Source: an uncultured Gammaproteobacteria bacterium
Lineage (GTDB): Bacteria > Pseudomonadota > Gammaproteobacteria > SZUA-229
Direction of reading: 5' to 3'
DNA length: 64,000 nucleotides
Assembly (NCBI GenBank): GCA_963759005.1
Contig: CAVWXQ010000014.1
Coordinates: forward strand, 23,655-87,654
Shown: one piece after another, positions 12,402 through 48,260 of the stretch
Numbering within the stretch: position 1 is the stretch's first letter
Layout: every line of letters begins with the position of its first letter
The notes under the pieces: model-generated
Told to the model about the DNA's origin: nothing
Databases searched by the model: none
Seen by the model: only the letters and a program-made list of their open reading frames with translations
Made by a program: the position numbers and the translations under genes

Positions 12402-13121
12402 CTACTCACTTACCGAGGTGGTGCTGAACAAATAGCCAAGCCAGGGTATATCCATCAACAGCGGGATACCCGCCCTGCCCTCGTTGCGAGTTTCGAGGAT
12501 CAGGCCACCGAGCACCACAGTCGCACCGCTCTGCACCACGACACTGCTGCTGATGCTGCGCTGTGAAATCGCCACATTGCCGCCGCCGCCGACAGCCGGC
12601 TCTGAACCGGGAAGGCTGACTTCCTGGCTGATTTCCATGGTGACCTGGCCGCCGGCGTTGATGCGCGGAGTGACGGACAACAAGGTGCCGGTGTCACGAA
12701 ACTGCACCTCAGAGACCACCGGGGCATCCGGGTTTGTGGTACTCTGGGAACTGCGCACGGTGACCGGTATCTGGTCACCCACGCGGATATTCGCGGTATG
12801 GTTGTCCAGCACCATGATCTGCGGCGCCGAGAGGAATTTGACATCGGTCTTACTGGCCAGCAGGTCAATAAACATCCTGGCATCATTGCTGCTCGAAAAC
12901 GTGGCCAGTGTCAGGCCATCACCACCAGCAGCGGTGGGCACCGGTGCGTTGAAGCCCAGACTGGTGTTGCCGCCGGAGAGGAACCAGCGCACGCCGTAAT
13001 CCAGCGCATTGGAAAGGGTCACCTCGGCGATGGTGGCCTCGATCAGCACCTGGCGAGGCTGCTCATCGAGCTGTTTAATGACGGCTTCGATGCCACGGTA
13101 ATCCCTGGGACTGGCCAGCAA
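12402..13121 (-). pseudogene. secretin (GspD/PilQ family) C-terminal domain fragment
   Basis: VLIEATIAEV, SAPQIMVLDNHTANIRVGDQIPV and IPLLMDIPWLGYLF match secretin C-domain motifs. Frame closed by tag/tga immediately upstream, so the N-terminal two-thirds are absent. Confidence 0.75.
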
Positions 13122-13530: not shown

Positions 13531-13947
13531 TTGTCGGCTGGTGTACTGGCAATCGAGAGCGGTAACCTGATCGAGACACAAGGCCATGCCTCGCCCGAAA
13601 CACAGCCTGCTGTCGATCCGATTGAGCAGGCAAAATTCACTGCATCAGGGATTGCCGCATTCAGCGAAATCACCGAACGACCGTTGTTCAGGGAAGGTCG
13701 TGAGCCACCGAGCGAACCCACAGCCACACCCGTGGCAGCCAGGCCGTCACCACTACGCCTGAAGCTGGAAGGCGTGGCCATTACACCTGGATCAAAAATT
13801 GCCATACTGCGCGATCTCAGCAACAACAAGATGCTGCATCTCGAAACTGGCATGAAACACCAGGGCTGGGAACTCACCTCTGTTACCGACACCGTCGCCA
13901 CATTCAAGCTTGGCGAACAGAGCCAGGAACTGACGCTAAAAAAATAG
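13531..13947 (+). CDS. PilP / GspC-HR-like pilus/secretion assembly protein
   Basis: ITERPLF motif followed by a beta-rich C-terminus ...LEGVAITPGSKIAILRD...LTSVTDTVATFKL. Confidence 0.4.
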   Translation: MSAGVLAIESGNLIETQGHASPETQPAVDPIEQAKFTASGIAAFSEITERPLFREGREPPSEPTATPVAARPSPLRLKLEGVAITPGSKIAILRDLSNNKMLHLETGMKHQGWELTSVTDTVATFKLGEQSQELTLKK

Positions 13948-14013
13948 GCAAGAATACCCGTAGCAAATAACAGGTGACAACATCAGTTATCTATGCACAA
14001 TTGATAGATACAG

Positions 14014-14263
14014 CACATCAAGCCCGGATATTTCATAGGAACGCTGCTAATCTTGCTTAACATTATGATTATTATAAGAAATAGCAGTATATTAGAGAAG
14101 TACACTATGTACCTGACAACGCTATGCAGTTTTTGGAAAAATATCAGCGGCCATTTTGTACGATACCCCTGTAACCATAGCTACGGCTATGCTTTTCGGC
14201 GAATAGTACAAACTGACTCACTGATATTTCCCCAAAATTCTGCATTCCTATGAAATATCCGGG
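14014..14263 (+). mobile_element. MITE copy 1 (about 250 bp, 19-bp TIR CCCGGATATTTCATAGGAA)
   Basis: Perfect terminal inverted repeats. Near-identical copies at 21903, 33239 and 40022. Confidence 0.7.
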
Positions 14264-14289
14264 CTAGCACAATCGAAGCAATGCGCCAG

Positions 14290-14660
14290 GCATGATAACG
14301 AAGTGTCAATTTTTTGACACACGTAATGTCATACTTATTACTCAAAAATATAAAGCTATCCGACTATCAACAATGTATATTTCCTGTCTTTATGACGAAT
14401 TGTTTTACACATTACGTATAAACGATATACTTATATTGCTTTTCCTATTGATAATTATAATATATTTATATCTAGCACATATATTGCCTATTTTTCATAT
14501 GCATCAGGCATGACAAAGAGCGCCAGCTTTGACATACAAAGTGCCAGATATGGCATACGAATGTCATGTTTAGTATACAAAAATATACTTAATATTGTTT
14601 ATACTATTGATAATTATAATATATTTATATCTGGCACATATATTGCTTTTATTTAGAAGC
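14290..14660. repeat. degenerate tandem duplication (about 160-230 bp units) in AT-rich region
   Basis: tattgataattataatatatttatatctRgcacatatattgc at 14447 and 14607, and gcatgaYaa...gtcat... at 14292 and 14512. Confidence 0.4.
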
Positions 14661-14745
14661 AAATACCCTTAATAAGCTTACAAATAAAGTTTTTTTTGTT
14701 AACTTTTTTCCAGTATGCATACTGGAACCAATCGATGAAAGTTGA

Positions 14746-15408
14746 ATGGCGCCCAAAAAAAAGGAGTTATCGATGTCTAAAACTATCCACGTTGCGATTT
14801 GTGATTATTGCTCTACAATTCGATACGGAATTCAGCATATTTTAAACAGGGATGCCAATATCAGCCTGGTTGCTGAAGCAAGCTCACCCAAAGAAATACT
14901 CACCAAATTTACCAGCCTTGATCTGGATGTCATCCTGATTGATCCTGGTGAAAACAGACAGACAGGGTTCGATTGTTTACGTAAATTTCGTGAATTAAAG
15001 CCCAATACCAAAACCATCCTCTTTACCAGTAGTTATAGCGATAAAAATCTGATAGTAGAAGCCATTCAAACAGGCGTTCAAGGTTACCTGCTCAAACAAG
15101 CTGAAAGTGAGGAAATCATAAATGCCATTTATGCTGTCGATCAGGGTGACACGATCCTGGCACCCAGTGTAACAACAATATTATTAGAATATATGCAACA
15201 TAAACAACACCAACTGCAAGCAAACCTAAGTAATCGTGAGCAAGAAGTTCTGGACCAGATAGCCCAGGGCAAAACCAATGGCGACATAGCGAATGCACTA
15301 TTCATCAGTATACGTACTGTTAAATTTCATGTCAGCTCTATTTTGGCAAAATTGAATCTAAAAAATCGAACCGAAGCTGCTTTATGGGGCAATAAGTCCC
15401 CCTGTTAA
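14746..15408 (+). CDS. NarL/FixJ (LuxR-type) response regulator, atypical receiver acid pocket
   Basis: REC domain plus C-terminal HTH LSNREQEVL...IRTVKFHVSSIL. The receiver N-terminus reads DYCS where DD is expected. Confidence 0.75.
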   Translation: MAPKKKELSMSKTIHVAICDYCSTIRYGIQHILNRDANISLVAEASSPKEILTKFTSLDLDVILIDPGENRQTGFDCLRKFRELKPNTKTILFTSSYSDKNLIVEAIQTGVQGYLLKQAESEEIINAIYAVDQGDTILAPSVTTILLEYMQHKQHQLQANLSNREQEVLDQIAQGKTNGDIANALFISIRTVKFHVSSILAKLNLKNRTEAALWGNKSPC

Positions 15409-15608
15409 GTAAATAGTTTACAGGCTGGTACAACAACGGTTAAGCGCAAACTCAAGCGTATAACTTAAATTCCATTACCCGCATAAAAAAGCAGCCAATG
15501 ACTCAGATGCACTTCAGGAAGCCAGTGACGACTATCACATTCATCAACAGAAGCCACTATAAAAGTCTGGATTGTTTTTATGGGTGTCTTTGTTTGTCTT
15601 GTTTATTA

Positions 15609-18600
15609 TTACACGGAAGCTGGGATGATAATCCCGCGTTGGGCCTCAACATCGCTTCCCGGCTCTCGGGCATTCGCCTCACTACGCCATAGCCGTTCCT
15701 GATCGAAGTCCTTCAAGATCCAAAGCAACCAGGCATGATTTCGTTGCCGGGTGGACATGGGTTTGGCGCCCAGCCAAACGGTAACCGGAAATACCAGCCA
15801 TGTGGCAAGCAGAGCGATGAGTAAAATGCTGATTGATGCTTCAAGCGACCATAGTGCCAGGCTAAAAGCCAGGGCTATGGCGGTATAGCCCCAGGTTTTT
15901 TTGAGCGCAGCCATGAATGAAACATGCTGCGTTTCCCTTTCGACCTCCGCCTGGACCTTCCATGTAGCTTGACCAATGAGTAAGCTTTTCACTGCGAGCC
16001 ATAGGCGAAGCGGGCTGTAGAGAACATCAGGCATATAAACAAAAGGCGTTGTAAGTATCTCGAGCCAGGCAGCGATGAATCCCCGCAAGGCCGAATTGAT
16101 ATTTCCAAGCGCCTCGGTACGTTGGCGCAAGAATGAGAGCCTGACCCCCGCTATAAAATTGAGTGATGGCTTATACATTTTAGGAAGCAGCACCAGACCC
16201 AGGATAATAAAATAGAAGTGAACTTTCATGAGCACCGGGTTTGTGTGAATCAAAATCGACTGGCCAAATGTTTCAATGAAAATCCATAGAAAGAAGAGCG
16301 GTGCTCGAAACAGCGCACGTGATGAAAAATGGGCGATATAGTGTGCAGTGTACGGAACAGCCGGCACTTTAATACTGTAGGATAAATTGTCGCTGTGGCT
16401 GTTACCGAAAAGCTTTTTAGCAAGTACGAAAGCGCGACCAATCCATTTTGGCGATAACAATACAGCATTCATCAGGTCACCCTGGGTCCAGCGAGTGAGC
16501 TGCGCCTGACGATTGAACGCGTTAGATGGCACACCTTCGTAGAAAAATACCTGCGGCACATAGGCCGGATTTAGATACAGTGCTTCAATCGTGTCATGGC
16601 TGAGAATATCAAGAGGCAAGGTTTCCCTGGGCGCTTGAGGTGTGCCAATAAACTGTTCAATGAATACGTCATTGTCTGCAAGTCCTTTGCCATAGTGACC
16701 GAATCGACCAAAAGCACGGAACTGTGCTTCCGGCATCTTAGACACGGTATGATGAGACAAAATTTCACGAAAAGCATGCCAGGTATCCATATTGGAAACA
16801 AGCACACCCGACTGGAAGAATCCCCGTTCGGGATTGGCGGCGGCGATCTCAATCAGTGTTCGTATGGCATCGGCGGGAACGCGATTGTCTGCGTCAAGCA
16901 GCACAGTGTAGCGGTAGCTGATATCCTCGTCTGTTCCGTAGGTCTGCCCTGCTTGCTTCAGATCGATTATATCCTGCAACCCACGCGCCTCCAACGCATG
17001 TGTCATTTTCTCGAACTCGTGTTTTAACAACGCTTGATCATTTTCAAGGTTCGAACAAAAACCGAATACTGGCAACTCAGCTGAGCGACCGCGATTGCCA
17101 TATTTTTCTTCGAGATAGGTAAATGGTCGGTCAATTCCTCGTGAACCGAGAAGCATTAAATCCTGGTACTGCCCGGCTTTTTTCAGCGTTGTGGACGTGC
17201 GATGAATATATTTAAAGCCCCGCACAACGCGCTCCACCGAGATCTCGATCGCCTTTTCCAGTTTTTCTCCCGAATAACCCTGTTGTTGCCAACGACTAAA
17301 AAGTCCGCACCAGAAATCCGCACGCAGACAATCGTTGTTTAATTTCATTGCTTCCATATGGCTAATCTTGTGAATTTCCGCCTCTGCAAGCAAGGTGCTG
17401 CGGATCCGCTCACGGTAGTTATCACGCAGGTCCATTTCGTGCTGAACGACAGACAAGGAAGTGGATGCGCTAACTAGTACTGCCGTCAGGTTCCCGTTAA
17501 TGTCCAGATTATCCAGGTAAGAGCGGTACATATTGTCAAAGGCTTCATCACACTCCCGAGCATGATTAGAGCGCAACATGTATGCAACAGTCGTTCTGTG
17601 ACTTGTTGGAATACCATCGGGCATGTCCACACGTCGACACTGAAGAGGCCCTTTTAACAACCGGAACCCGATTAAAAACAATAGCTGGGTAATCACATCC
17701 GCCACCCCCCATATAAGGTAGCCGATAGCGAAAGTTACAAAACCAGCAATGAACACATTTGAAAACGTCCAGTCGATCGTCAATGCATAAAGAACTGTCA
17801 AGCTGATAGTGATGAGTCCTACACACAAAAAATACAGATAGGCTGATATCGGCATTTTTGTTTGAGCTTTACCCGGCTGCTGGGTTGACGATGGCTGGGT
17901 TGACGATGGCTTGCTTTGGAATGCCGCGCCCCGCCCGACCCCTGTTCGACGGCGTAGACCGTCATAAAGGCCAGCCCAGATAGCCCTGAAACCCTGCCAA
18001 TTCATAGAACTAAGCGTCCACAGAGAATACAGGCAGATGTGTCGTCCCAATTTGACGAATTGAACGGGTCGGAGACGCGCAGGACAGGAATACAATGTCA
18101 TCATCAGCACCATATTGCGCAACAGATAGTAGATTCGCAAAGGCGACAATATACCCTGCTCCGAACCACCGAGGCTCTGGTGGCAGTCATGTAACACTTT
18201 ACCTTCAACAGGTACCAATTTAACTTCATAGCCCTTACGTCGAACACGCTGAAACCACTCAACATCCTCGTAGCCGAAGAACAGCCGCTCATCAAAATAG
18301 CCAAGCTCAATGAAGGCCTCTGTCTTGATGAGTGCAGTGGCCGTGGCCACACCGTCCACTGATTTGTGATTGTTGTACATATCACGTAATCCCCAATCGG
18401 CTTCCATCTGTGCCGGGAACCTCCATCCGTCAGTCCACCAGCTTGTCCAAAGACGCTCCGGCTCCTGTGCGAAATGCAATAGAGGCGCAAACACCAACTC
18501 TTCGGGGCGTGATGTCTCGGCCCGCTGAACCAGATCCTCAATTACCTGTGGATCGACGGTGACATCATTATCCAGTGTCAGGATATATTTAGGTGGAGTT

Positions 18601-18956
18601 GCCTTACCTGATTCCAGTACATATTTCAGCGCCTGATTCCTGCCCTGGGCAGCACCTAGATTTTCCTGATTGAGGATCAGGTGAGACCGACTGAAATTCT
18701 TCAGCTCTTGCTGAATAATGGCCACAGAACCGTCTTTTGAGCCGTTATCAACAACGATGATTTCAACATCGAAACAACTGCAATGCACACGGCTTAAGGA
18801 CTGTAGGAGTCGTTGGATCTGGGATTTGGCATCAATGTTCAGAATTACAATGGCAATCCGTGGAGCACAGTCCGCATCATGTTGGGATGCCGCTGTTTGT
18901 GTAACTGCTGCTGGTTGATGGCTATTGGTCGATGAATCGAGCCTAAATGTTGTCAT
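15609..18956 (-). CDS. large fusion glycosyltransferase: N-terminal GT2 plus OpgH/cellulose-synthase-like processive GT2 with TM domains
   Basis: IVVDNGSKDGS and TLDNDV (GT2 N-terminus). VLLDADN and QAQLTRW (QxxRW). Multiple TM helices in the middle and at the C-terminus. Confidence 0.7.
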   Translation of the reverse strand: MTTFRLDSSTNSHQPAAVTQTAASQHDADCAPRIAIVILNIDAKSQIQRLLQSLSRVHCSCFDVEIIVVDNGSKDGSVAIIQQELKNFSRSHLILNQENLGAAQGRNQALKYVLESGKATPPKYILTLDNDVTVDPQVIEDLVQRAETSRPEELVFAPLLHFAQEPERLWTSWWTDGWRFPAQMEADWGLRDMYNNHKSVDGVATATALIKTEAFIELGYFDERLFFGYEDVEWFQRVRRKGYEVKLVPVEGKVLHDCHQSLGGSEQGILSPLRIYYLLRNMVLMMTLYSCPARLRPVQFVKLGRHICLYSLWTLSSMNWQGFRAIWAGLYDGLRRRTGVGRGAAFQSKPSSTQPSSTQQPGKAQTKMPISAYLYFLCVGLITISLTVLYALTIDWTFSNVFIAGFVTFAIGYLIWGVADVITQLLFLIGFRLLKGPLQCRRVDMPDGIPTSHRTTVAYMLRSNHARECDEAFDNMYRSYLDNLDINGNLTAVLVSASTSLSVVQHEMDLRDNYRERIRSTLLAEAEIHKISHMEAMKLNNDCLRADFWCGLFSRWQQQGYSGEKLEKAIEISVERVVRGFKYIHRTSTTLKKAGQYQDLMLLGSRGIDRPFTYLEEKYGNRGRSAELPVFGFCSNLENDQALLKHEFEKMTHALEARGLQDIIDLKQAGQTYGTDEDISYRYTVLLDADNRVPADAIRTLIEIAAANPERGFFQSGVLVSNMDTWHAFREILSHHTVSKMPEAQFRAFGRFGHYGKGLADNDVFIEQFIGTPQAPRETLPLDILSHDTIEALYLNPAYVPQVFFYEGVPSNAFNRQAQLTRWTQGDLMNAVLLSPKWIGRAFVLAKKLFGNSHSDNLSYSIKVPAVPYTAHYIAHFSSRALFRAPLFFLWIFIETFGQSILIHTNPVLMKVHFYFIILGLVLLPKMYKPSLNFIAGVRLSFLRQRTEALGNINSALRGFIAAWLEILTTPFVYMPDVLYSPLRLWLAVKSLLIGQATWKVQAEVERETQHVSFMAALKKTWGYTAIALAFSLALWSLEASISILLIALLATWLVFPVTVWLGAKPMSTRQRNHAWLLWILKDFDQERLWRSEANAREPGSDVEAQRGIIIPASV

Positions 18957-18968
18957 AGCCAGGAGCCC

Positions 18969-18998
18969 CTACGAAATTCGTAGTTTGAAGTACTTCAA
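18969..18998. promoter_or_regulatory. two adjacent perfect palindromes in 5' leader of the GT gene
   Basis: CTACGAAATTCGTAG (18969-18983) and TTGAAGTACTTCAA (18985-18998), 13-42 nt upstream of the start at 18956. Confidence 0.3.
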
Positions 18999-19340
18999 GT
19001 ATAAACCACTGCGTCAGGCGCTGGCAATTGTCTATCGTAGCATTGCTCTCAATACACCCTGTAATAACAATGACTTTTTCAGCCTGCTCCTTCCATCGAT
19101 ACAGCATATTATTGGCTATAGCCAGTGATTTTGCAGCCTAGCACTGAATAACCCTGTTCGCGCACCAGAGCTACCGCTTCTTCTTTTAATTTTCTAGAAT
19201 ATTGTTTGTATGTTCGTTTCTGTCCCATAATGACTAAAATCCGCACTTTGATTTAAAAATCAGCAGCATAGTTATATTTATCGATATTTTTTTGGTTAAA
19301 GTCTAAAATCATCCATATAAGTTAATAAATTGGTGACACA

Positions 19341-20729
19341 ATGACAATAAAACAGGCGCTTATTGTAGATGATTCCAAATCTGCACGTGTCGTGCTAGAA
19401 CGTATGCTTATAGAGCTTGCGCTTGATGTAGATTGTGTTGAGACTGCGGTTGATGCACTCGATTATTTGAAAGATCATCAACCTGATGTGATATTTATGG
19501 ATCACATGATGCCAGGCATGGACGGTTTTGAAGCGGTTAAGCATATAAAAACTAATCCGCATACAACTGCTATTCCTATCATGATGTACACCTCTAGAAG
19601 CGGTGAGGTATACCTTAGTCAGGCGCGTGCACTTGGCGCTGTTGGTATTATTCCCAAAACTATTTCTCCTGTTGGTCTAAAAGAATCTTTATTTAAATTA
19701 GGGTTAATTGATGACCGTCGAATCGAATCCGCACTGGTAGTTGATGAACCAATAGCAGGCAAAGCAGACGAACAGGTAATTAAAAAGCGTCCCTTAACAC
19801 AGCACAGTGACCAAGACACTTTTTTGGAAGAGCTTGAAAGATTGATGGATGACCAGACAGTCGAGTTACACAAAAGTATGTGGCTAGGTGTTGAGTCTGT
19901 TAGTCATGAAATATTCAACCGGCTAAATGGTGAACTTGAAAAACAACTTGAAAAGATGCAACCAGCGTCACCAGTACAAAACAAGATATTCTCGCCATTT
20001 TATTTTGTAGGCGCCTTACTTGTGCTATCGATTTTTTTTAATGTCAGATTACTTTCTGATAACTATCAACTTGAAAAAAACCTGGTAGCCACAAATATAA
20101 ATCACACCATTGCGCCTGATGAGAGCAGCGTAGAAGAAAACCTGGCTGACAAGCAAGATGTATTAAAGGAGTTTGTTTCCTGGGCGCATAATATGGTGCT
20201 CGAATATCCATTTGACGAACTGGCACTGAATGATAAGCGTTTACCCTTCATTGAGGAATTAGTTAAAAAAGCATTGGAAGCCGAATATAGCGGAAACATT
20301 ATTTTACAAACGCATGTTGGCAGATTCTGCATGAACAGAGATCCAATGGGCAACTTTATACTTGCAGACAATACATTATCAATTACACAGTGTGAATATA
20401 TAGGAAATGACCTGCAACCAAATGACGCACCTTCTGCTCATCAATCTTTGAGTTTTGCAAACTATCTTTCGGAAATAAATTCTCTGAACAAAAAAAGTGT
20501 AGAGGTTGACGTTGATAATGTCGCACGGTCATTCGAATTATCAAAATATCCTAAAGCTGTCCCGCAGACTACAGTAGAAGAGTGGAACCTGGCAGCACAA
20601 CTTAATAATCGCATTACCGTTAAGCTGGAGCCAGCACCGACTGAATCGGAGCTAAAGGCCGAATACCTATTGTGGACAAAAAAATTATCTTCGGACAAGC
20701 TTAAAAATGATGCTTCCGCCCCCCAATAA
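19341..20729 (+). CDS. CheY-like receiver domain protein with TM segment and uncharacterised C-terminal domain
   Basis: Canonical REC (IVDDS...IFMDHMMPGMDG...YTSRS...K). Hydrophobic segment FYFVGALLVLSIFF. About 230-aa C-terminus with no motif I recognise. Confidence 0.7.
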   Translation: MTIKQALIVDDSKSARVVLERMLIELALDVDCVETAVDALDYLKDHQPDVIFMDHMMPGMDGFEAVKHIKTNPHTTAIPIMMYTSRSGEVYLSQARALGAVGIIPKTISPVGLKESLFKLGLIDDRRIESALVVDEPIAGKADEQVIKKRPLTQHSDQDTFLEELERLMDDQTVELHKSMWLGVESVSHEIFNRLNGELEKQLEKMQPASPVQNKIFSPFYFVGALLVLSIFFNVRLLSDNYQLEKNLVATNINHTIAPDESSVEENLADKQDVLKEFVSWAHNMVLEYPFDELALNDKRLPFIEELVKKALEAEYSGNIILQTHVGRFCMNRDPMGNFILADNTLSITQCEYIGNDLQPNDAPSAHQSLSFANYLSEINSLNKKSVEVDVDNVARSFELSKYPKAVPQTTVEEWNLAAQLNNRITVKLEPAPTESELKAEYLLWTKKLSSDKLKNDASAPQ

Positions 20730-20801
20730 AATCACTTTTATTGCAGCAGAAGCTTAGATCTGTCACCTGGTCAGTCTGCTTTAAGGTAGCCGTCCCCCAT
20801 C

Positions 20802-21830
20802 ATGTCCAAATGTCTGAAGTTTTTAGTCGCCATGCCAGTACAGCTTGTTTTGCTTCTGTCAATGTGCGCATGTAGTAATCCTAAATTTCAGACGCGACCA
20901 GATACCACTCTTCATAACACCCGACTAACGCCCGGGTCAGTGATAATGTCTGACGGTTATGTGTTACCCATGAAGACATGGCCATCTACAGATGACCCCG
21001 CCTTCGTGGTGCTCGCCATGCACGGTTTCAATGATTACAGCAACGCCTTCGATGCGACTGCACATAAATTTGCAGATAATTTGATCACTACCTACGCCAT
21101 TGACCAGCGCGGCTTCGGTGCGACCAGGCAGCACGGCATCTGGGCTGGAGACAGCACCCTGCAATCCGACCTCATAGCAACGGTCAATCTGCTGTGCGAG
21201 AAACACTCTGGTCTGCCATTATTCCTGCTGGGCGAGAGCATGGGCGGTGCTGTTATACTCAGTGCAGCACAGCAGTTGAAACGGACCTGCATACAGGGTG
21301 TAATCCTGTCATCCCCTGCCGTATGGGGCTGGCAAACCATGCCATGGTGGCAAACAGTGCCGCTAAGACTTCTCGCCCATACACTTCCCGAACTCACAGT
21401 GACCGGTGAAGGCCTGGAAATTCATCCGTCGGACAACGTCGAAATGCTACGTGCATTAGGTAGTGACTCCCTGATCATTAAAGAGACACGCATCGACGCG
21501 CTCTACGGGCTCACTGACCTAATGGAAACCGCCCTGGTAAACAGCGGGTCACTGAAAATGCCAGCATTAATCCTGTATGGCGAACACGATGAAATCATTC
21601 CACCAAAACCATTCTGCCAGATGCTCAATAAGCTGCCTGATAGAGCCACATCTCATTGGCGCCTGATGCTCTACCCCAACGGGTATCACATGCTATCACG
21701 TGATTTGCAGGGTGAGACTGTAATCCAGGATATGGTAACGTGGATACACAACCAAAAATCCTGGTTACCTTCTGGTCAGGAAATTACTCAGAACACCTCT
21801 CGCTTATCGGCGCTGAGTGAATGCGATTAA
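20802..21830 (+). CDS. secreted alpha/beta-hydrolase (lysophospholipase/monoglyceride lipase-like)
   Basis: HGFNDY plus GESMGG (GxSxG nucleophile elbow). Signal peptide. Confidence 0.7.
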   Translation: MSKCLKFLVAMPVQLVLLLSMCACSNPKFQTRPDTTLHNTRLTPGSVIMSDGYVLPMKTWPSTDDPAFVVLAMHGFNDYSNAFDATAHKFADNLITTYAIDQRGFGATRQHGIWAGDSTLQSDLIATVNLLCEKHSGLPLFLLGESMGGAVILSAAQQLKRTCIQGVILSSPAVWGWQTMPWWQTVPLRLLAHTLPELTVTGEGLEIHPSDNVEMLRALGSDSLIIKETRIDALYGLTDLMETALVNSGSLKMPALILYGEHDEIIPPKPFCQMLNKLPDRATSHWRLMLYPNGYHMLSRDLQGETVIQDMVTWIHNQKSWLPSGQEITQNTSRLSALSECD

Positions 21831-21902
21831 CTACACACTAACCATTACCAACACCTTGTTATTCTGTGGATTGAATAACTACATTGAGGAATCTCTAATT
21901 AA

Positions 21903-22318
21903 CCCGGATATTTCATAGTAATGCAGAATTTTGGGGAAATATCAGTGAGTCAGTTTGTACGATTCACCGATAAAATCGTAGGAACGATTTTACATGAGCG
22001 AAGCGAGCCCGTAGGGTTAATGGGCAGGAGGCCCGTAATTAAAGCATAGCCGTTCGGCACACCGCTTCGCTGCTCCATGCATTGCCCTACTACCGTACTT
22101 CCTATACATAAGCTATGGTTACAGGGGAATCGTACAAAATGGCCGCTGATATTTTTCCAAAAACTGCATATACTGCCATGGATGGCAGGTAGTAGGGCAA
22201 TGCAGGAGCTATTGCCGAGCATTGTCAGGTACATAGTGTACTTCTCTAATATACTGCTATTTCTTATAATAATCATAGCGTTAAGCAAGATTAGCAGCGT
22301 TCCTATGAAATATCCGGG
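21903..22318 (-). mobile_element. MITE copy 2 with about 170 bp of nested insertions
   Basis: Same TIRs in inverse orientation. Contains extra internal segments that are inverted repeats of each other (gcattgccctactacc / ggtagtagggcaatgc). The terminal ...GGGTT overlaps the TAA stop of the ada-like gene. Confidence 0.7.
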
Positions 22319-23173
22319 TTAAGTTGACAATCCAGTTCTCGCCGCCTCCCATAGATGAATTGCGTGCTTTCGAGTCTCGCCCCAATGATAGCCACCAAGA
22401 TTTCCGCTTTGTTGAATAACACGATGACAGGGTATAAGAAACCCAATCGGGTTTGAACCGATAGCCCTGCCAACAGCACGGGCTGAATTTGGACGTCCAA
22501 TTGAAGCAGCCACCTGAGAATAACTCACTACTTTGCCCATTGGAATATCAAGCAAAGCCCGCCAGACACTTACCTGAAAATTTGTACCAGAGACCAGTAA
22601 AGATAATGGGCGGTCTTTATCATTTTCTATAGCGAACATTGAATCGATAATTTCAGCTGTATGTTTGCTGTTGTTTATTAACTGCGCATAAGGCCAGCGC
22701 TTCACAAGATCTTTAATTTCCTGTTCAGCATTGCTCTCTTCAGGAAATGAAAATTTACAGATCCCTCGTGGCGTAATAGCAATAAACGCGCTGCCAAATA
22801 CCGTTTCATGAACCGCATACTCAATAGTCAGGCCACTGCCCTGCGTTTTAAATTCACCTGGCGTAACTGCCTCGAGACTAACAAAGTGGTCGTAAAGTCT
22901 CGAGCCGCTACTCAACCCGACTTCATGCGTTACCTCTAATATGGGTTTAGCCTCTTGCAGCAATTTTTTTGCGCGTTCTACGGTAAGAACCTGTAAGAAT
23001 CTTTTTGGGGTAACGCCTGCCCAACGCGTGAACATCCGCTGAAAATGATAAGAACTTAAATGAACATGCGCTGCTATTTCATCCAGGGTTGGCTGTTGCC
23101 CAACCTGATTAGTTACATAATGGATAGCTTTCGCGATTCGTTCATAATCCGACATATTTCTTATGTCCCGCAA
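22319..23173 (-). CDS. Ada-like bifunctional AraC-type regulator / methylated-DNA-protein-cysteine methyltransferase
   Basis: AraC HTH in the N-terminus. MGMT active site IPCHRVI in the C-terminus. Confidence 0.8.
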   Translation of the reverse strand: MRDIRNMSDYERIAKAIHYVTNQVGQQPTLDEIAAHVHLSSYHFQRMFTRWAGVTPKRFLQVLTVERAKKLLQEAKPILEVTHEVGLSSGSRLYDHFVSLEAVTPGEFKTQGSGLTIEYAVHETVFGSAFIAITPRGICKFSFPEESNAEQEIKDLVKRWPYAQLINNSKHTAEIIDSMFAIENDKDRPLSLLVSGTNFQVSVWRALLDIPMGKVVSYSQVAASIGRPNSARAVGRAIGSNPIGFLIPCHRVIQQSGNLGGYHWGETRKHAIHLWEAARTGLST

Positions 23174-23716: not shown

Positions 23717-24022
23717 TTATAACTCACCCGACTCGTCCACTTCAGTAATCCAGTACATCCCCTTACCTGTAAACGATATACCCGAACCACGAAGCTCATC
23801 CAGTAAAGTTTTCGCGCGGGCATCTTCCAGAATCACATCAACACGCACCTGAGGCACATAACCCACCACTTTATCCCGAGCCGATAAAAAAGCATCCTGC
23901 TTTAATTGCGAGCTATGCTCTTCGATATGACTGAACATAAAACTGTCCAGCTGCAGGCTACGCAAACAGTCAGCCAGTTCCTGTTGCAGTGATGTATGCA
24001 CCACGATGGATAATTTTTTCAT
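23717..24022 (-). CDS. DUF3240-like P-II-fold protein, typical 3' partner of HME-RND pumps
   Basis: About 100 aa. Position overlaps the RND stop by 4 nt. I recall this family as a small P-II-like protein downstream of czc/cus pumps. Confidence 0.5.
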   Translation of the reverse strand: MKKLSIVVHTSLQQELADCLRSLQLDSFMFSHIEEHSSQLKQDAFLSARDKVVGYVPQVRVDVILEDARAKTLLDELRGSGISFTGKGMYWITEVDESGEL

Positions 24023-27000
24023 GCTGAGACCTCCACTTTTTTCACCCGCATCTTTTTCTCTAATGCTTCTTCTACCCAGGCATAGAGTGCCGGCAGTAAA
24101 ATCAATGTCAGGATGGTTGAGGTAAACAGGCCGCCAATCACCACGACGGCGAGTGGCTGCTGCAGTTCAGAGCCGGGGCCGGTCGCTGTCAGCAGGGGCA
24201 ATAAACCAAAGCTGGCTATCATGGCTGTCATCAGTACCGGTCTTAATCGTCGTTCAGCGCCCCGTCTTACCGCTTGCTGAATACTTAAACCCCTTTGCCT
24301 TAGTTGATTGAAGTAACTCACCATCACCACACCATTGAGTACCGCAACACCAAACAGGGTAATAAAACCTACCGATGCCGGTACCGACAGATAAAGTCCG
24401 GAATAATACAAACTGACGACACCGCCAATCATAGCGAAAGGGATGTTCAGAATAATCACGCCTGCCTGTAACAGCGAACGGAAAGTGGTAAACAACATGA
24501 AGAAAATAAGCACTATGGCAACAGGTACCACCAGAGCCAGTCTGGTTGATGCACGCTGCTGGTTTTCGAACTGACCACCAAAGGTAACATAATAACCCGT
24601 AGGCAAGTCCACTTTTTCTTCTATCTTACGACGTACTTCCTCGACAAAACTGACCACATCGCGGGCCTCTACATTTGACTGGATAACCACCAGACGTTTG
24701 GCCGATTCACGTATAATCTGAACCGGTCCATCCACCACTGTCACTTCGGCCAGGTGTCCCAGAGACACTTTAGTACCATTGGGTAAACTCACCAGCATTT
24801 TTTTAATGGCTGCCGCTGAGCTGCGATCTTTTTCCTGATAGCGCACCAGGATGCCGACACGACGATTATTTTCCAGTAATTCGGTCACCACCTGGCCACC
24901 GACTGCGGTTTCTACTAACCTGTTAATGTCTTCAACATGGATGCCATAACCGGAAATCACGTCCTGATTGATGTCGATCTGTAAATATTTCTGCCCTGAA
25001 ATATCAGCACGAAACACGTCTACTGCACCCGTTATATTATTCACCAGTTGTTCAATTTCGATGGCTTTCTGCTCCAGTACAAACAGATCATCACCATAAA
25101 GTTTGATTGCCATGGCAGAACGCACACCGGTTAGCATTTCTGATACGCGCATATCGATTGGCTGACTGAAGGCGTAATCAACATTATCAAAAGGGGCTAA
25201 TTTTTCACGCAAATTTTCCTGGAACTGTTGCAATGAAATATTCCATTCTTCCTGTGGTTTTGTCACCAGAAAATTATCGGTCTGATTTAAGCCCATTGGA
25301 TCCATGCGTAATTCATCAGCGCCTGTTCGCGAGGTGACGCCAATCACTTCAGGCAGCTCCATCATGGCTTTTTGAATCGGTGCGTCCATTTCCAGCGATT
25401 TTTCCAGGGTGATACTGGGATCTTTTTCTAACAGGATAACGGTACTGCCCTCATCCATGATCGGCATAAATTCTTTACCGATATGAGGGAACAGGGTTGC
25501 TGTTGCAAACAGCGCCACCAGCGCTAACCCTACCGCCGTTTTTCTATAACGTAGCGCCCAGTTCATCGCCGGTAAATAAATGATTTTCAGCACTCGCATA
25601 AGACGACCATCTGTGTCTGCATTTTGGGCCTCGGCCAGCGCATTTTCGGCCTGCTTTTCATCGTCCTGTTTTTTCGCCTGTTCATTCGGTTGATTTTGGA
25701 CATGAAGTTTCATAAAGAAACTGGCCAGCACTGGAATCACGGTTAATGACATTATTAACGAACCAATCAGGGCAAAAGTAATGGTAATGGCCAGCGGCGA
25801 AAACATTTTCCCTTCCAGTCCGGTCAGGCTAAACAATGGCAGAAACACAGCCACAATAATCAGTATGCCGGAAATAACCGGCGACGATACTTCCAGCACC
25901 GCGCGATAAACAAGGTGCAATTTATTAACACCTGCAGGCGCTTTACTGAAATGGCTATGAATGTTCTCCACCACCACGACGGCGGCATCAACCAGAATGC
26001 CAATAGCGATTGCCAGCCCGCCTAGTGACATCAGGTTGGCAGATACATTGAACAGCTTCATCATAATGAAGGTAAACAACACGGTTAACGGCAAAATTAA
26101 TGCCACCGTTAACGCACTGCGGATATCACCCAGCATAATAATTAACACCAGCAATACCAGCACAACGGCTTCACCCAGTGCTTTTTCCACCGTCCATACT
26201 GCCTTGGTAATCAGCTCGGTTCGATCATAAAACGATTCGATGCTAACGCCTTCAGGCAAAATAGCTTTTAATGTTTCCAGTGCTTTTTTAGTTTCTGCTA
26301 CCGTCTGTAAACTGTTGGCGCCTTTACGCAACAGAACCAGTCCGGTGACGACTTCACCCTCGCCATCAGCAGTTACCGCGCCATAACGTGTCATACTGCC
26401 AACGCGCACCTCGGCTACATCACTAATATGTATCGGTTCACCATAAAGTGTGCGTACGGTTATGTTCTTAATGTCGTCCACGTTGTTTAATTTTCCGACC
26501 GTACGCACCAGTAATACTTCATCGTTCTGGTTGATGCGATCACCGCCAGCATTGCGGTTACTCTCCATCAGAGCATGCTCTATTTCGTCGATACTGATGC
26601 CGTGTTTAACCAGCGTTTTCGGTTTGATAACTACTTCATAGGTACGAACTTCACCGCCCAGTGAATTAACATCTGCCACCCCTTCTACTTTGCGCAGATG
26701 CGGACGGATGACCCAGTCCTGCAAACTGCGCAATTCCTGGTTGCTATAACTCTTGCCGCTATCATCGCCGCTGTTGGTGTCGTAGTTATGGCCGATAATG
26801 CGATACATAAATATCTCACCCAGTGGGGTGGTAATGGGAGCCAGACCACCTTCAATATCGGCCGGTAATGAATCCCAAACCTGGTTGAGTCGCTCTGTCA
26901 CCAGATTACGCGCCAGATAAATATCCATGTCATCTTCAAAGTCGACAACAATCACACTTAATGCATATTTTGTTGTTGATCTAAGTACGGTCTGTCCGGG

Positions 27001-27228
27001 AATGCCCTGCATTTCCATTTCAATCGGAAAGGTAATGCGCTGCTCAACTTCACTGGGTGACATACCGGGGGCCTTGATAATAATCTGCACCTGGGGCGCT
27101 GAAATATCCGGAAAAGCATCAATCGGTAAGGTTTTAAACGACCATAAACCGGCAGCAGAAATGCCCAGTGTGACTAACACAACCATCAGTCTCTGGATAA
27201 GAGAAAAACGTAAAATTGCAGCAATCAT
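24019..27228 (-). CDS. heavy-metal efflux RND permease (CzcA/CusA family)
   Basis: About 1070 aa with 12-TM RND architecture. N-terminus MIAAILRFSLIQRLMVV...DAFPDISAPQV is typical of HME-RND. Likely start is the ATG at 27226-27228, 1 nt after the OMF stop, with RBS ggagg. Confidence 0.9.
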   Translation of the reverse strand: MIAAILRFSLIQRLMVVLVTLGISAAGLWSFKTLPIDAFPDISAPQVQIIIKAPGMSPSEVEQRITFPIEMEMQGIPGQTVLRSTTKYALSVIVVDFEDDMDIYLARNLVTERLNQVWDSLPADIEGGLAPITTPLGEIFMYRIIGHNYDTNSGDDSGKSYSNQELRSLQDWVIRPHLRKVEGVADVNSLGGEVRTYEVVIKPKTLVKHGISIDEIEHALMESNRNAGGDRINQNDEVLLVRTVGKLNNVDDIKNITVRTLYGEPIHISDVAEVRVGSMTRYGAVTADGEGEVVTGLVLLRKGANSLQTVAETKKALETLKAILPEGVSIESFYDRTELITKAVWTVEKALGEAVVLVLLVLIIMLGDIRSALTVALILPLTVLFTFIMMKLFNVSANLMSLGGLAIAIGILVDAAVVVVENIHSHFSKAPAGVNKLHLVYRAVLEVSSPVISGILIIVAVFLPLFSLTGLEGKMFSPLAITITFALIGSLIMSLTVIPVLASFFMKLHVQNQPNEQAKKQDDEKQAENALAEAQNADTDGRLMRVLKIIYLPAMNWALRYRKTAVGLALVALFATATLFPHIGKEFMPIMDEGSTVILLEKDPSITLEKSLEMDAPIQKAMMELPEVIGVTSRTGADELRMDPMGLNQTDNFLVTKPQEEWNISLQQFQENLREKLAPFDNVDYAFSQPIDMRVSEMLTGVRSAMAIKLYGDDLFVLEQKAIEIEQLVNNITGAVDVFRADISGQKYLQIDINQDVISGYGIHVEDINRLVETAVGGQVVTELLENNRRVGILVRYQEKDRSSAAAIKKMLVSLPNGTKVSLGHLAEVTVVDGPVQIIRESAKRLVVIQSNVEARDVVSFVEEVRRKIEEKVDLPTGYYVTFGGQFENQQRASTRLALVVPVAIVLIFFMLFTTFRSLLQAGVIILNIPFAMIGGVVSLYYSGLYLSVPASVGFITLFGVAVLNGVVMVSYFNQLRQRGLSIQQAVRRGAERRLRPVLMTAMIASFGLLPLLTATGPGSELQQPLAVVVIGGLFTSTILTLILLPALYAWVEEALEKKMRVKKVEVSA

Positions 27229-27229
27229 T

Positions 27230-28573
27230 TTACACTCCTCCTTCGAGCAGGCTGACATTCAGTGTATCGGCATCCGATATCATTTGCCCGGCAAACAGCT
27301 TGACCTCCGCTAACTCCACCCATGCCTGATAGAGTAATTCCATATAAGTTAAGCGTGCTTCAAAATAGGTATTATTTGCATCTACCAGAGACAATATATT
27401 TAATTCGCCACTGCTAAATCCCTTGTTGGTTAAGTCGAGCATCTTCTTCGCTGGCTTAAGCACTTTTTGTTTATAGTCCCTGGCCTGTTCAACTACATGG
27501 TTCAAATGCGTAAAGCTTTTATTCAGATTAATTTTCAACTCACGTCGCAATAACTGTAACTCGATACGTTGCTGACTGGCTTTATAGGTGGCTTTGCTTG
27601 CTGCGGTGTTTTTACGGTCATTGATTGGAATTTGAACATTGAACATGATGGCGTAAACATCACCGCGTCCACTGAGAAAGGTATCTTTTGACCAGCTCAA
27701 AGCGATAGTCGGGTCGACCATCTGGCTACTGCGAGCAACATCTATTTCATGCTTCGCCGCCAGAACCTGCTGCTGCTGGCTGGAGAGCTGTGCATGATTA
27801 TCCTGTAATGAAATCAGATTATTAATATCGGGAATTTCTTCGATAGGCTGCAGCTCAGAAACTGTTGCCACACTGCCAATCTCCAGACCTAATAATTTGA
27901 CAAACTCATTCACCACTTCATTGTATTTACCTTCAGCGCTGCTTGCTGCCTGACGCGCTTCTTCCTGAATAATGGTCAGTCGCATTTTTTCCAGTGGTGT
28001 TAAATAACGCACAACAATGCCCGCTGAATTTTTCTTTGATTGACCACCCCACTCATTAGCCAGCTGAAGCTGTTTTTCAGCCAGCTTTAATTCTGACGAA
28101 ACAAGCTGTAACTGGTGATATATTTTCGTCACACGATTTTGCACCTGCAGCGTCTGATACTGGCGGGAAAACCGGGCCGCTTTCAGACTGGCCTCAGCAG
28201 CTGATGTCTGGTATTTGATACGTGAGATTGGGATGGGCTGGCTAATCGTAATATCAGTCAGATCATACCCGCCGGTTTCATCATCCTGCCCCAATTTATT
28301 ATCGATGCGAGCGCCTATGCTAGGTTCTGGCCATAAACTGGACAGGTTTATGTCCTCCTTGCGCGCACCAATTTCAGCCATCGCCTGTTTTAATTCTGGT
28401 GAGACAGACATTGCCTGCTCAACGCTAGATTGCAAGGTCCATTGCTGTGCAATGGACGGTGTACTCAGCAGCAGCATTATTATCAGTGCCAATAGCACTA
28501 TTAGTACAGCGGTGATTTTTGAAAATACGGCTTTTGTCGACTTAATGGTGGTAAGAACGGGGGTAATAAACAT
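27230..28573 (-). CDS. outer-membrane efflux factor (TolC/CzcC/CusC family)
   Basis: 447 aa with a signal/TM N-terminus. Coiled-coil-rich two-repeat OMF pattern. C-terminal ...LNILSLVDANNTYFEARLTYMELLYQAWVELAEVKL. Confidence 0.8.
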   Translation of the reverse strand: MFITPVLTTIKSTKAVFSKITAVLIVLLALIIMLLLSTPSIAQQWTLQSSVEQAMSVSPELKQAMAEIGARKEDINLSSLWPEPSIGARIDNKLGQDDETGGYDLTDITISQPIPISRIKYQTSAAEASLKAARFSRQYQTLQVQNRVTKIYHQLQLVSSELKLAEKQLQLANEWGGQSKKNSAGIVVRYLTPLEKMRLTIIQEEARQAASSAEGKYNEVVNEFVKLLGLEIGSVATVSELQPIEEIPDINNLISLQDNHAQLSSQQQQVLAAKHEIDVARSSQMVDPTIALSWSKDTFLSGRGDVYAIMFNVQIPINDRKNTAASKATYKASQQRIELQLLRRELKINLNKSFTHLNHVVEQARDYKQKVLKPAKKMLDLTNKGFSSGELNILSLVDANNTYFEARLTYMELLYQAWVELAEVKLFAGQMISDADTLNVSLLEGGV

Positions 28574-40021: not shown

Positions 40022-40276
40022 CCCGGTTATTTCATAGTAACGCTGCTAATCTTGCTTAACACTATGATTATTATAACAAATAGCAATATATTAGAAAAAC
40101 ACACTATGTACCTGACAACGCTATGCAGTTTTTGGAAAAATATCAGCGGCCATTTTCTACGATTCCCCTGCAACCATAGCTACGGCTATGCTTTTCGGCG
40201 AATCGTACAAACTGACTCACTGACCGATTTTAATAAAACATGACCCCATCGTCTGCATTCCTATGAAATATCCGGG
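40022..40276 (+). mobile_element. MITE copy 4
   Basis: Both TIRs intact. Terminal ...GGGTT overlaps the TAA stop of ORF 40277-40564. Confidence 0.7.
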
Positions 40277-46527: not shown

Positions 46528-48260
46528 TTAGTGACTATGTGCGCTAGCTGCCCCTGCTGGTACACGTATATCTTCAACCATATGTTGAATGTGATCAGGT
46601 GGTGCTGGTGTCATCTTCGAAACAACATAGGCCACACTGAAGTTTACAACCGCGCCCACTGCACCAAACGCATTTGGCTCAATGCCCATAAACCAGTTTG
46701 GTTTCATGTCACCTAAGAAGGCGGTACCGGGAACAAACATAATACCTTTGTGTTGGAACACATAAAGTAGCGTGACAGAAATACCAGCAATCATACCTGC
46801 AATGGCGCCTTCCTTGTTCATATTCTTACTGAAAATACCCATCATCAGTACAGGGAAGATGGAAGATGCAGCAAGTCCGAATGCCAGTGCCACCGTTCCC
46901 GCAGCAAAGTCAGGCGGATTAAATCCCAGGTAACCAGCTAAGCCGATAGCACCTGCCATCGCTAACCGACTGGCGAACAACTCCTGCTTCTCGTTAATAT
47001 CCGGTCTAAACACCCCTTTCAATAAATCATGTGAAATGGATGAGGCTATCGCCAGCAACAAACCTGCGGCGGTAGATAGCGCAGCAGCAAGACCACCTGC
47101 AGCAACCAGGGCAATTACCCAGTTAGGTAAACCAGCTATCTCAGGATTTGCCAGCACCATGATATCTCTATCAACTTTCACCATTTCGTTAGTGACTGGG
47201 TCTGCAGAATAATTCAACCAGACCATCGCCATTTTTGTCTTCAAATTTCAACAGACCTGTTTTCTCCCAGTTTTTAAACCAGCTTGGACGGTCGTCATAA
47301 ACAAGATTTACACCAGGCTCGTGGCTGAATGGTTTCGTGTAAGTTTAAACGAGCCATCGCAGCTACAGCAGGTGCTGTTGTATAAAGAATAGTGATAAAG
47401 ATTAGTGCCCAACCAGCAGACACACGCGCATCACTCACTTTTGTCACTGTGAAGAAACGGATGATTACGTGGGGCAGACCCGCAGTACCAATCATTAGAG
47501 ACAAAGTATAAACAAAGGTGTTTAAGGTACCCAGTCTCGTAAGCGTCGTGTACTCAGCAAAACCGAGTTCCGTCACCACCTGATCCAGTCGATCCAGCAG
47601 ATAGGTTTCTGTACCCGCCATCATACTACCCAAACCTAACTGTGGAATTGGATTACCGGTCAGGTTCAGCGAGATAAAAATTGCAGGAATGGTATAAGCA
47701 AAAATAAGAACACAGTATTGTGCAATCTGGGTATAGGTAATACCTTTCATGCCGCCTACAACCGCGTAGATAAATACGATGCCCATACCAATTGACAATC
47801 CTAATTCATAACTCACTTCCAGGAATCGGGAGAATGCCACGCCGATACCTTTCATCTGACCGATTACATAGGTCACCGATGCAACAATCAAACAGATTAC
47901 TGCAACAATACGTGCAGTTTTTGAGTAATAACGATCGCCAATAAACTCTGGCACGGTGAACTTTCCGTACTTGCGCAGGTAAGGGGCAAGCAACATCGCC
48001 AACAACACGTAGCCACCCGTCCAACCCATAAGAAAGACAGAACCGCCGTAACCAAAGAACGCAATCAAACCCGCCATCGAAATAAACGATGCTGCTGACA
48101 TCCAGTCGGCGGCGGTCGCCATGCCGTTAGCAATCGGATGAATACCACCGCCAGCGATATAGAATTCACTGGTTGTTCCAGCACGCGCCCAGAAAGCGAT
48201 GCCGATATAGATCGAAAATGTTATACCTACGACAATAAATGTTAATGTTTGTAGTTCCAT
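46528..48260 (-). pseudogene. actP: actP-type cation/acetate symporter (SSF family), at least 2 frameshifts near 47240-47340
   Basis: The N-terminal 321 aa and C-terminal 238 aa are each SSF-like (...GLPHVIIRFFTV...). The linker HEPGVNLVYDDRPSWFKNWEKTGLLKFEDKNGDGL is readable only in a third frame. Confidence 0.8.

Follow-up and report, generated by a model that had tools for sequence, protein, structure and literature searches.

A double glycosyltransferase pairing a GT2 domain with a divergent OpgH-like module: a putative autonomous glycan synthase beside two orphan response regulators

We analysed a window of 64,000 nucleotides from contig CAVWXQ010000014.1 of an uncultured Gammaproteobacteria bacterium (assembly GCA_963759005.1), and describe here a gene for a double glycosyltransferase (GT) of 1115 amino acids (aa) that lies between the genes for a NarL/LuxR-type response regulator and for a receiver protein with a transmembrane (TM) helix (REC-TM). 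The double GT joins a complete GT2 domain to a divergent, processive OpgH-like GT2 module, and we judge it rather probable that the protein is an autonomous inner-membrane glycan synthase with two catalytic centres, to which the flanking regulators are unrelated. The initial annotation, made from the letters of this DNA, had recognised both GT2 domains and had further proposed that the three genes form one regulated module; the domains are upheld by the analysis below, the module is not.

The N-terminal GT2 domain, proposed on the strength of its DNGSKDGS and DxD motifs, is confirmed by profile searches and by conservation. It matches PF00535 over residues 37-191 (E 1.9e-23; 83.6 bits against a cut-off of 23.3), other GT2 models match it too, and in a family alignment of 12 sequences (A1), whose members are 55-86% identical, the segments VVDNGSKDGS (68-77) and LDNDV (128-132) are invariant. 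Residues invariant in all 12 sequences include D70, N71, G72, S73 and D75 of the nucleotide-binding motif, D129, N130 and D131 of the DxD metal motif, and E230 and D231 of the ED motif. The closest NCBIfam models are rhamnosyltransferase-like, EpsD, MftF and GlfT1, all matched under their cut-offs (E 5e-17 for the rhamnosyltransferase-like TIGR01556). A sequence search of the PDB with this domain returned GT2 enzymes only, the best of them being chondroitin polymerase (2z86/2z87, E 4e-5).

The remainder of the protein is distantly related to OpgH (MdoH), as had been suggested from its DAD and QAQLTRW motifs, and this is borne out by MdoH models, by profile comparison with OpgH itself and by invariant motifs. 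The C-terminal part matches MdoH/OpgH models only, and weakly (best NF003958, E 1.5e-11, 43.2 bits against a cut-off of 419, residues 680-835); the other NCBIfam MdoH equivalog models give 16-34 bits against cut-offs of 328-1037, one MdoH model aligns across residues 680-1095, and none of the Pfam models tested on the C-terminal 750 residues reached its cut-off. A profile of the C-terminal 756 residues aligned with E. coli OpgH (NC_000913) in hhalign with a probability of 96.9% (E 1.7e-10, 309 columns), and the alignment runs from DAD via SHD and QxxRW into the TM helices, up to OpgH residue 675. The motifs LLDADNR (686-692), ILSHDTIEA (784-792) and RQAQLTRW (816-823), which are invariant in the 12-sequence alignment together with KKAGQYQD, have VLDADSV, ILSHDFVEA and RDRRW as their aligned counterparts in E. 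coli OpgH. Likewise, residues 339-506 of OpgH match the same segment by tblastn in all 12 GT loci. In the first half of the OpgH-like domain the alignment was made by eye, and pairs HRTTVAYMLRSNH of the double GT with HRTALIMPICNED of OpgH, LVSAS with ILSDS, and YIHRTSTTLKKAGQYQD with YRRRRRRVKRKSGNIDD. For the C-terminal module, the PDB sequence search with family profiles gave no match.

The two catalytic domains are separated by a TM hairpin, which appears as Kyte-Doolittle peaks at residues 376-392 and 401-430 and as helices at 370-391 and 398-434 in a low-confidence AlphaFold2 (AF2) model. Further hydropathy peaks follow the second catalytic domain at residues 887-903, 908-924, 959-975, 978-994, 1022-1040 and 1042-1058. 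Hydropathy and the low-confidence AF2 helices taken together give about eight TM helices, two between the catalytic domains and about six after residue 870, where about ten had been counted earlier. Since an even number of helices separates them, both catalytic domains would face the cytoplasm. We further note that the gene carries a perfect 15-nt tandem duplication at 17879-17908 (GCTGGGTTGACGATG twice), which adds a second PSSTQ to the inter-domain linker; other family members have a single copy.

A word-indexed search of 5.8 billion clusters returned 24 matches: only 13 true relatives, 55-86% identical, with the remainder matching the N-terminal GT2 domain alone. All 13 relatives come from metagenomes or metagenome-assembled genomes (MAGs); where a source is named, in a few cases, it is Gammaproteobacteria. 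The C-terminal family is rare: with a profile of this part, an exhaustive HMMER search of 1.84 billion representatives retrieved 181 proteins at a threshold of E<=1e-3, of which 58 reach E<=1e-30. Many of its members are giant proteins. Save possibly for faint matches, the profile essentially did not recover canonical OpgH, although that family is very large, so the C-terminal family is a distinct and distant sister of OpgH. The nine members tested (within P0152-P0165) have no Pfam match whatsoever.

The pairing of the two domains extends beyond the close relatives. In the large proteins P0145 (3289 aa) and P0146 (2117 aa) a GT2 domain stands immediately ahead of the OpgH-like module, and a hidden Markov model of the window's N-terminal domain matches both over its full length (E 4e-77 and 6e-75). 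The complete tandem is also present in an Omnitrophota MAG (L012) at 40% identity, while on a Planctomycetia contig (L013, 172-7039) the module ends an open reading frame (ORF) of 1413 aa and a related GT2 starts next, in a protein of 885 aa. Because they are fused in some lineages and encoded by adjacent genes in another, the two GT domains form a functional pair, and their pairing is evolutionarily conserved from Gammaproteobacteria to Omnitrophota and Planctomycetes. This conserved pairing, together with the completeness of the N-terminal GT2 domain, supports the earlier proposal of a fusion of two GT2 domains over a standard OpgH merely with a long N-terminal extension. Other members show further fusions: in P0149 (2764 aa) the OpgH-like module is joined to two ABC-transporter units, and at a Planctomycetales locus (L014, 4019-17134) it lies inside a 4371-aa ORF that also holds an intein splicing domain.

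As its scores stay below the equivalog cut-offs and opgG is not linked to the gene, we place the double GT outside the OpgH equivalog family; it probably works like OpgH and BcsA. The OpgH-like centre would polymerise a sugar from a nucleotide-sugar donor and thread the chain through the protein's own TM channel, and the N-terminal GT2 domain would supply a second linkage, in the form of a primer, a branch or an alternating residue. A product with two linkages is suggested by the best PDB match of the N-terminal domain, which is a chondroitin polymerase with two GT2 domains of its own. Because its gene was an orphan wherever it was seen, the double GT would need no partner. A glucan is the default guess for the product, taken only from the relationship to OpgH.

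Comparison with known systems places the double GT between several architectures. Its homology to OpgH covers the latter half of the GT2 catalytic domain together with the TM helices behind it, and the two share the motifs DAD, SHD(F/T)(V/I)EA and (R/Q)xxRW and, by eye, HRT...N and YxxR...K(K/S)G(N/Q). The putative layout of 2 + ~6 TM helices with a large central cytoplasmic domain would also be common to both, this being reportedly the topology of E. coli OpgH. The double GT family differs from OpgH in two insertions of about 50-75 aa within the catalytic domain, in an N-terminal cytoplasmic region that is a complete second GT2 domain, and in having no opgG neighbour. BcsA, hyaluronan synthase, PgaC, NodC and chitin synthase each combine polymerisation from a nucleotide sugar with translocation of the chain in a single protein, and the double GT resembles these processive GT2 synthases in its D, DxD, (T/S)(E/H)D, QxxRW signature, of which the first D is doubtful, and in its KAG(N/Q) motif, to which HAKAGN of BcsA is similar. 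In contrast to them, it has no PilZ/cyclic di-GMP module and no BcsB or PgaABD partners, carries an extra N-terminal GT-A domain, and gives no significant direct PDB sequence match to any of these synthases. K4CP chondroitin polymerase, class II PmHAS and GlfT2-type enzymes also hold two glycosyltransferase domains per chain; these enzymes are soluble or peripheral, with both domains of the GT-A type and no membrane channel, whereas the second domain of the double GT is an integral-membrane one of the OpgH type.

Table 1. Features of the double GT and its surroundings, with positions counted from the first letter of the window
Feature	Position	GT residues	Strand	Details
Double GT gene, 1115 aa	15609..18956		minus	Intact ORF; 13 homologues, near-full-length or partial, 55-86% identity
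N-terminal cytoplasmic GT-A type GT2 domain	17937..18863	~32-340	minus	PF00535; DNGS.DGS, DND (DxD) and ED invariant; helical extension after
TM hairpin between the catalytic domains	17655..17855	~368-434	minus	Hydropathy and low-confidence AF2 helices
Divergent OpgH-like processive GT2 catalytic domain	16452..17609	~450-835	minus	KKAGQ, DAD, SHD, QxxRW; two family-specific insertions
C-terminal bundle of ~6 TM helices, presumed translocation channel	15669..16349	~870-1096	minus	Aligned with post-catalytic OpgH helices
Palindrome 1, CTACGAAATTCGTAG	18969..18983			Exact; 7-bp arms, 1-nt centre; 13-27 nt upstream of the GT start codon
Palindrome 2, TTGAAGTACTTCAA	18985..18998			Exact; abuts palindrome 1; overlaps last base of the -10-like hexamer
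Sigma-70-like promoter candidate of the double GT	18998..19027		minus	TTGCCA, 18 nt, TATACT; best consensus match in the region, 10/12
Frameshifted, truncated IS3-family OrfA remnant between GT and REC-TM	19083..19228		minus	Translation MGQKRTYKQYSRKLKEEAVALVREQGYSV...; broken by a 2-nt deletion; IS3 assignment by eye only
NarL/LuxR-type response regulator gene	14773..15408 (called from 14746)		plus	Pfam and NCBIfam matches
20-nt perfect palindrome TTCCAGTATGCATACTGGAA	14708..14727			45 nt upstream of the regulator start codon; unique in the window, 0.01 expected by chance
REC-TM gene, 462 aa	19341..20729		plus	Pfam REC domain
MITE copy, terminal inverted repeat CCCGGATATTTCATAGGAA	14021..14266			Left edge of the LuxR-GT segment
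Larger MITE copy, inverted, extra internal segments	21900..22321			Between the hydrolase and Ada-like genes

Three intact genes occupy the region (Table 1): the NarL-type regulator on the plus strand, the double GT on the minus strand and REC-TM on the plus strand. The double GT and REC-TM genes are divergent across a spacer of 384 bp; the LuxR-type gene, which had been placed upstream of the double GT, in fact sits past its 3' end and is convergent with it. GT loci were compared from about ten lineages other than the window species (L002, L003, L004, L011, L015, L018, L020, L021, L022 and others). By tblastn, the NarL-type regulator, REC-TM, the hydrolase and the Ada-like protein were found at none of these roughly ten loci, and the loci that lack either regulator include those whose GT is 86% and 81% identical. 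The neighbours instead vary from locus to locus, and comprise uvrB with an aminotransferase gene, DUF6502 with DUF5666, a MarR gene, a MopE-like gene, and nuoLMN-like genes with an FkbM methyltransferase and an IS91 transposase. A tblastn search of the 64-kb window and of 13 GT loci with E. coli OpgG gave no match, and no obvious polysaccharide-export genes are annotated beside the double GT at those loci that have flanking sequence. This orphan context is compatible with a self-contained synthase-exporter. The arrangement seen in the window is repeated only in two contigs of the same species, L017 (98% nucleotide identity, with the double GT, the insertion sequence (IS) remnant and REC-TM present) and L030 (with the NarL-type regulator and the 3' end of the GT gene).

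The junctions around the double GT bear the marks of mobile elements. In relatives L005 and L006 (93-95% identical) homology to the window begins exactly at 19083-19084, at the edge of the IS3-family remnant, and both contigs end within the IS; the same-species L017 has about 185 bp extra at this junction. Among GT loci, homology extends no more than 31-55 nt ahead of the ATG and gives out close to the stop codon. Two miniature inverted-repeat transposable element (MITE) copies, inverted to each other, flank the four genes of the segment, and further copies lie at 40022-40276 and, in part, at 29128 and 33239. Their terminal inverted repeats of 19-24 nt (CCCGGATATTTCATAGGAA) give 8 matches in the window where 0.01 are expected. 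L005 also carries a related MITE, there between the REC-TM and hydrolase genes, unlike the position in the window. We considered a composite transposon formed by the two inverted MITEs around 14266-21900 and rejected it, as the further copies in the window and the related MITE elsewhere in L005 mark these elements as genome-wide repeats. The adjacency of the double GT and the regulators is best explained by a rearrangement associated with mobile elements (IS or MITE), and the spacer between the double GT and REC-TM is not a shared dedicated control region.

The leader of the GT gene contains the two abutting perfect palindromes that had been reported, both of them exact, which together span 13-42 nt upstream of the ATG. 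Since the candidate -10 hexamer ends where palindrome 2 starts, the palindromes would occupy approximately +1 to +30 of the transcript. The hexamer region TTATACT is kept in L018 and L020 and reads CTATACC in L004. L017 and L004 have palindrome 1 unchanged and equally far from the ATG; L018 and L020 read CAACGAATTTTGCAG there, with three differing bases and no compensating change, so that the symmetry is broken. For palindrome 2, the symmetry is confined to the window and the same-species L017, and L004, L018 and L020 do not conserve it. In the low-GC part of the window, palindromes with 7-bp arms occur at chance frequency (10 against 8.6 +/- 3.1), while a pair of them within 5 nt arose in 1/100 second-order Markov simulations. 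Neither palindrome has further copies in the window beyond chance at <=3 mismatches, and this includes the sequence upstream of both regulator genes, where their recurrence had been suggested as a check. An Rfam search of 13900-22400 identified no family, its sole match being a chance microRNA inside a MITE. In L004 a MarR gene lies immediately upstream of the GT gene; a search of the window for a MarR homologue that might bind palindrome 1 found none. At most, the palindromes may be a lineage-specific operator (about +1 to +30) of some DNA-binding protein, and a conserved regulatory device of the GT family is not supported.

These observations bear on two opposed readings of the leader. According to one, the twin palindromes are functionless, a chance or recent feature of the 5' untranslated region in which the conserved part is the -10 hexamer, a ACGAATTT core and the ribosome-binding region. 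This is a serious possibility that we rate somewhat short of even, given the chance-level count of such palindromes overall, the absence of palindrome 2 from all other lineages, the uncompensated breaks of palindrome 1 in L018 and L020, the lack of other window copies, and a leader RNA fold no more stable than shuffles (z = -0.12), on which ground, together with the Rfam result, we also rejected an RNA explanation of the leader. It has to contend with two perfect palindromes only 1 nt apart, a closeness seen in no more than 1 of 100 simulations, with their position at exactly the predicted +1 to +30, and with the perfect palindrome 1 of L004, which is retained there next to a MarR gene despite diverged sequence further upstream. 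According to the other reading, the LuxR-type regulator, the double GT and REC-TM would together make up a regulated module for an exopolysaccharide or a periplasmic glucan, in which the twin palindromes serve as common operator. Although the three genes are adjacent in this species, an arrangement kept by its contigs L017 and L030, the palindromes abut at the predicted GT promoter, and a GerE-type gene also stands beside the GT gene in the L001/L002 lineage, homologues of REC-TM, the NarL-type regulator and the hydrolase are absent from the GT loci of other lineages, the REC-TM family is about ten times larger and occurs without the double GT in every other context looked at, an IS3 remnant separates the two divergent genes, and the palindromes do not recur ahead of either regulator gene, palindrome 2 being specific to the species. 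The neighbourhood data largely refute the three-gene module that had been proposed, and we regard it as highly improbable.

A different question is whether the double GT exports a polymer. It could instead be a processive GT acting on glycolipids or lipid carriers (GT21- or Pgs-like), or a regulatory or morphogenetic OpgH-like protein with an anchor module. This would agree with a weak match to PF13506 (GT21; residues 679-744, E 0.0075), with the replacement of the first UDP-binding Asp of OpgH under the by-eye alignment, with the lack of OpgG or any other downstream partner, and with the reported moonlighting of OpgH proteins in the control of cell size and morphology (PMC3723540, PMC11389396). 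We nevertheless think it unlikely, because the MdoH models far outscore GT21 (E 1.5e-11 against 7.5e-3) and because DAD, SHD, QxxRW and many TM residues are invariant at 55-86% identity and alignable at 37-40% across phyla; this conservation of motifs and TM-helix residues suggests selection on catalysis and the membrane domain together. Literature searches on OpgH fusions returned nothing specific. Several points do weigh against our preferred reading of an autonomous synthase-exporter. Polymer export is proposed from homology only. In the first half of the OpgH-like domain hhalign gives a probability of 5.6%, in another register than the by-eye alignment, and under that alignment alone the first UDP-binding Asp (ILSDS) corresponds to VSAS in the GT family, so that donor binding may differ or the OpgH-like domain may be impaired. 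The AF2 model of the whole protein is poor (mean pLDDT, the per-residue confidence score, 41, from the 12-sequence alignment) and its helix positions are rough only, and the PDB search found no solved relative of E. coli OpgH. The independent GT loci number only about ten, many of them on short contigs. Finally, the gene downstream of the double GT in L001/L002 encodes a GerE-only helix-turn-helix (HTH) protein with 32% identity to the window regulator, in the HTH only, which leaves some room for a loose association of the double GT with LuxR-type regulators in two lineages (the window and L001/L002).

The NarL-type regulator and REC-TM are orphan response regulators unrelated to the double GT. 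In common with the NarL/LiaR family, the former combines a receiver domain (REC, PF00072) with a GerE HTH (PF00196), both above cut-off, and it aligns over its full length to the NarL model (E 1.8e-41) with all equivalog cut-offs missed. Its true start is probably at 14773, where an AGGAG Shine-Dalgarno sequence is found and where an identical 211-aa database protein (P0294) begins; 531 homologues were found. Its subfamily is populous, with proteins of about 206 aa that share a conserved VAICD[YCH]C.TIRYGL motif, and differs from the NarL/LiaR family in lacking the MPGMxG stretch after the phospho-acceptor. The description of this regulator as atypical is mildly justified: in the beta1-alpha1 loop the subfamily has Cys-Asp (VAICDY) for the usual Asp-Asp acidic pair, while the phospho-acceptor Asp (LID), the Thr/Ser (TSS) and the Lys (LLK) are all retained. 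No kinase gene adjoins it, the only kinase in the window being a CrbS-like hybrid 30 kb away that has its own NarL-type partner. The 20-nt palindrome TTCCAGTATGCATACTGGAA ahead of the gene is a candidate auto-operator, and a better candidate than the GT palindromes. The surrounding AT-rich sequence at 14292-14727 (26-31% GC) contains a duplicated module with a spacing of about 160 bp; its repeats are 63 nt at 14433-14495 and 14592-14654 (89% identical) and 28 nt at 14325 and 14560, and its palindromes are GTGTCAAAAAATTGACAC, TGCCAGATATGGCA and TTCCAGTATGCATACTGGAA.

REC-TM had been described as a CheY-type receiver joined to a TM helix and a C-terminal domain that could not be placed, and this description holds. 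Its receiver (Pfam REC, E 5.7e-23, residues 5-120, the only Pfam match) is canonical, with the DD pair, D54, T/S and K all present, and is followed by a low-confidence linker, a strongly conserved juxtamembrane helix, a single TM helix at 214-240 and, at 268-440, a conserved domain of some 175 aa. Invariant positions of the juxtamembrane helix in alignment A6 are D170, Q172, E175-H177 and S179-L182. The C-terminal domain is confidently folded by AF2 (pLDDT >90 over residues 270-430) and contains two invariant cysteines, C330 and C351, which fit a periplasmic location. We had ourselves considered an OmpA/MotB-like fold for it (YPFD..L, THVG.FC, SLSFANYL and NNRITV in a beta-alpha-beta order) and rejected the idea, as hhalign gives less than 1% against Pal, MotB and OmpA; the Asp of the OmpA_C-type GHTD and the Arg of LS..RA are not conserved. 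At least 146 homologous clusters share the REC-TM architecture, and the few with a source taxon are Gammaproteobacteria, one of them Thiotrichaceae. Elsewhere REC-TM is a solitary orphan without the double GT, with neighbours that include purA-hisZ-hflKC, Cus-like RND (resistance-nodulation-division) operons, TRAP transporter genes, relA and msrB. REC-TM is a neighbour of the double GT and not part of its system.

REC-TM lies 0.2-4 kb from a heavy-metal-type RND efflux operon (OEP, a CusB/CzcB-like membrane fusion protein, ACR_tran and DUF3240) both in the window, where the operon is at 23717-28573 on the minus strand, and in L005. Such an operon is likewise found near the 48-49% identical REC-TM homologues of L009, L010 and L027, and not in L007, L028 or L029, so there may be a weak recurrent association of REC-TM with RND efflux. 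In function, REC-TM may be compared with LapD-type inside-out receptors (PMC3032553), in which a cytoplasmic signal-receiving domain is similarly coupled through the membrane to a periplasmic output. The two are not homologous, and REC-TM differs in that its input is a phosphorylatable REC domain, that it has one TM helix only, and that its periplasmic domain is of unplaced fold. Literature searches on membrane-anchored response regulators returned nothing specific.

The wider window is heterogeneous in composition. Its first 11.9 kb have about 59-74% GC and the remainder about 39-48%, with a drop from 0.69 to 0.38 inside 400 bp around position 11,950, and the high-GC part could be a foreign island or an assembly chimera. 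Within this part, 1-5 kb codes for SCO1/SenC, a SurA-like peptidyl-prolyl isomerase and a beta-propeller protein, and 5.5-12 kb has overlapping ORFs in several frames without Pfam matches. A 239-aa ORF at 12402-13121 on the minus strand matches only the C-terminal Secretin domain (PF00263, E 2.9e-43) and has the appearance of a secretin gene cut short, isolated between the high-GC block on one side and the AT-rich MITE region on the other. Further along, a 716-aa ORF at 30225-32375 (minus) has weak multihaem cytochrome signatures (Cytochrome_C7; MtrC/MtrF domain II/IV-like). At 46528-48260 (minus), two adjoining ORFs, of 321 and 238 aa, match a single sodium:solute symporter in its N- and its C-terminal half, and the symporter gene is probably frameshifted. 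Beside this split symporter, 48715-53009 encodes the CrbS-like hybrid histidine kinase (PAS_7, HisKA, HATPase, REC) and the second NarL-type regulator.

The C-terminal family of the double GT is missed by current domain libraries despite its reach from Gammaproteobacteria to Omnitrophota and Planctomycetes, and the REC-TM family, which numbers over 140 clusters and whose periplasmic domain is folded with confidence and carries two invariant cysteines, is a candidate for a response regulator with inside-out signalling. The locus also carries a warning for annotation, as the adjacency of regulators, even with a striking palindrome pair in between, most probably arose here from mobile-element junctions and does not mark a regulon. 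More speculatively, and with a good deal of doubt on our part, the cassette of about 1100 aa that joins GT2, hairpin and OpgH-like module might represent an undescribed class of autonomous two-site synthase-exporter, making two linkages or using two sugars without OpgG, BcsB or Wzx/Wzy partners and built into giant Planctomycetes proteins of 2000-4400 aa, some of them ABC-fused or intein-interrupted, while REC-TM proteins might be widespread regulators with a periplasmic output, driven by phosphorylation to signal from the inside out. If true, the two-site cassette would add a new architecture to the membrane-embedded GT2 synthases of cellulose, hyaluronan, chitin, poly-N-acetylglucosamine and osmoregulated periplasmic glucans, and would amount to a minimal one-gene system that makes and exports a possibly novel glycan.

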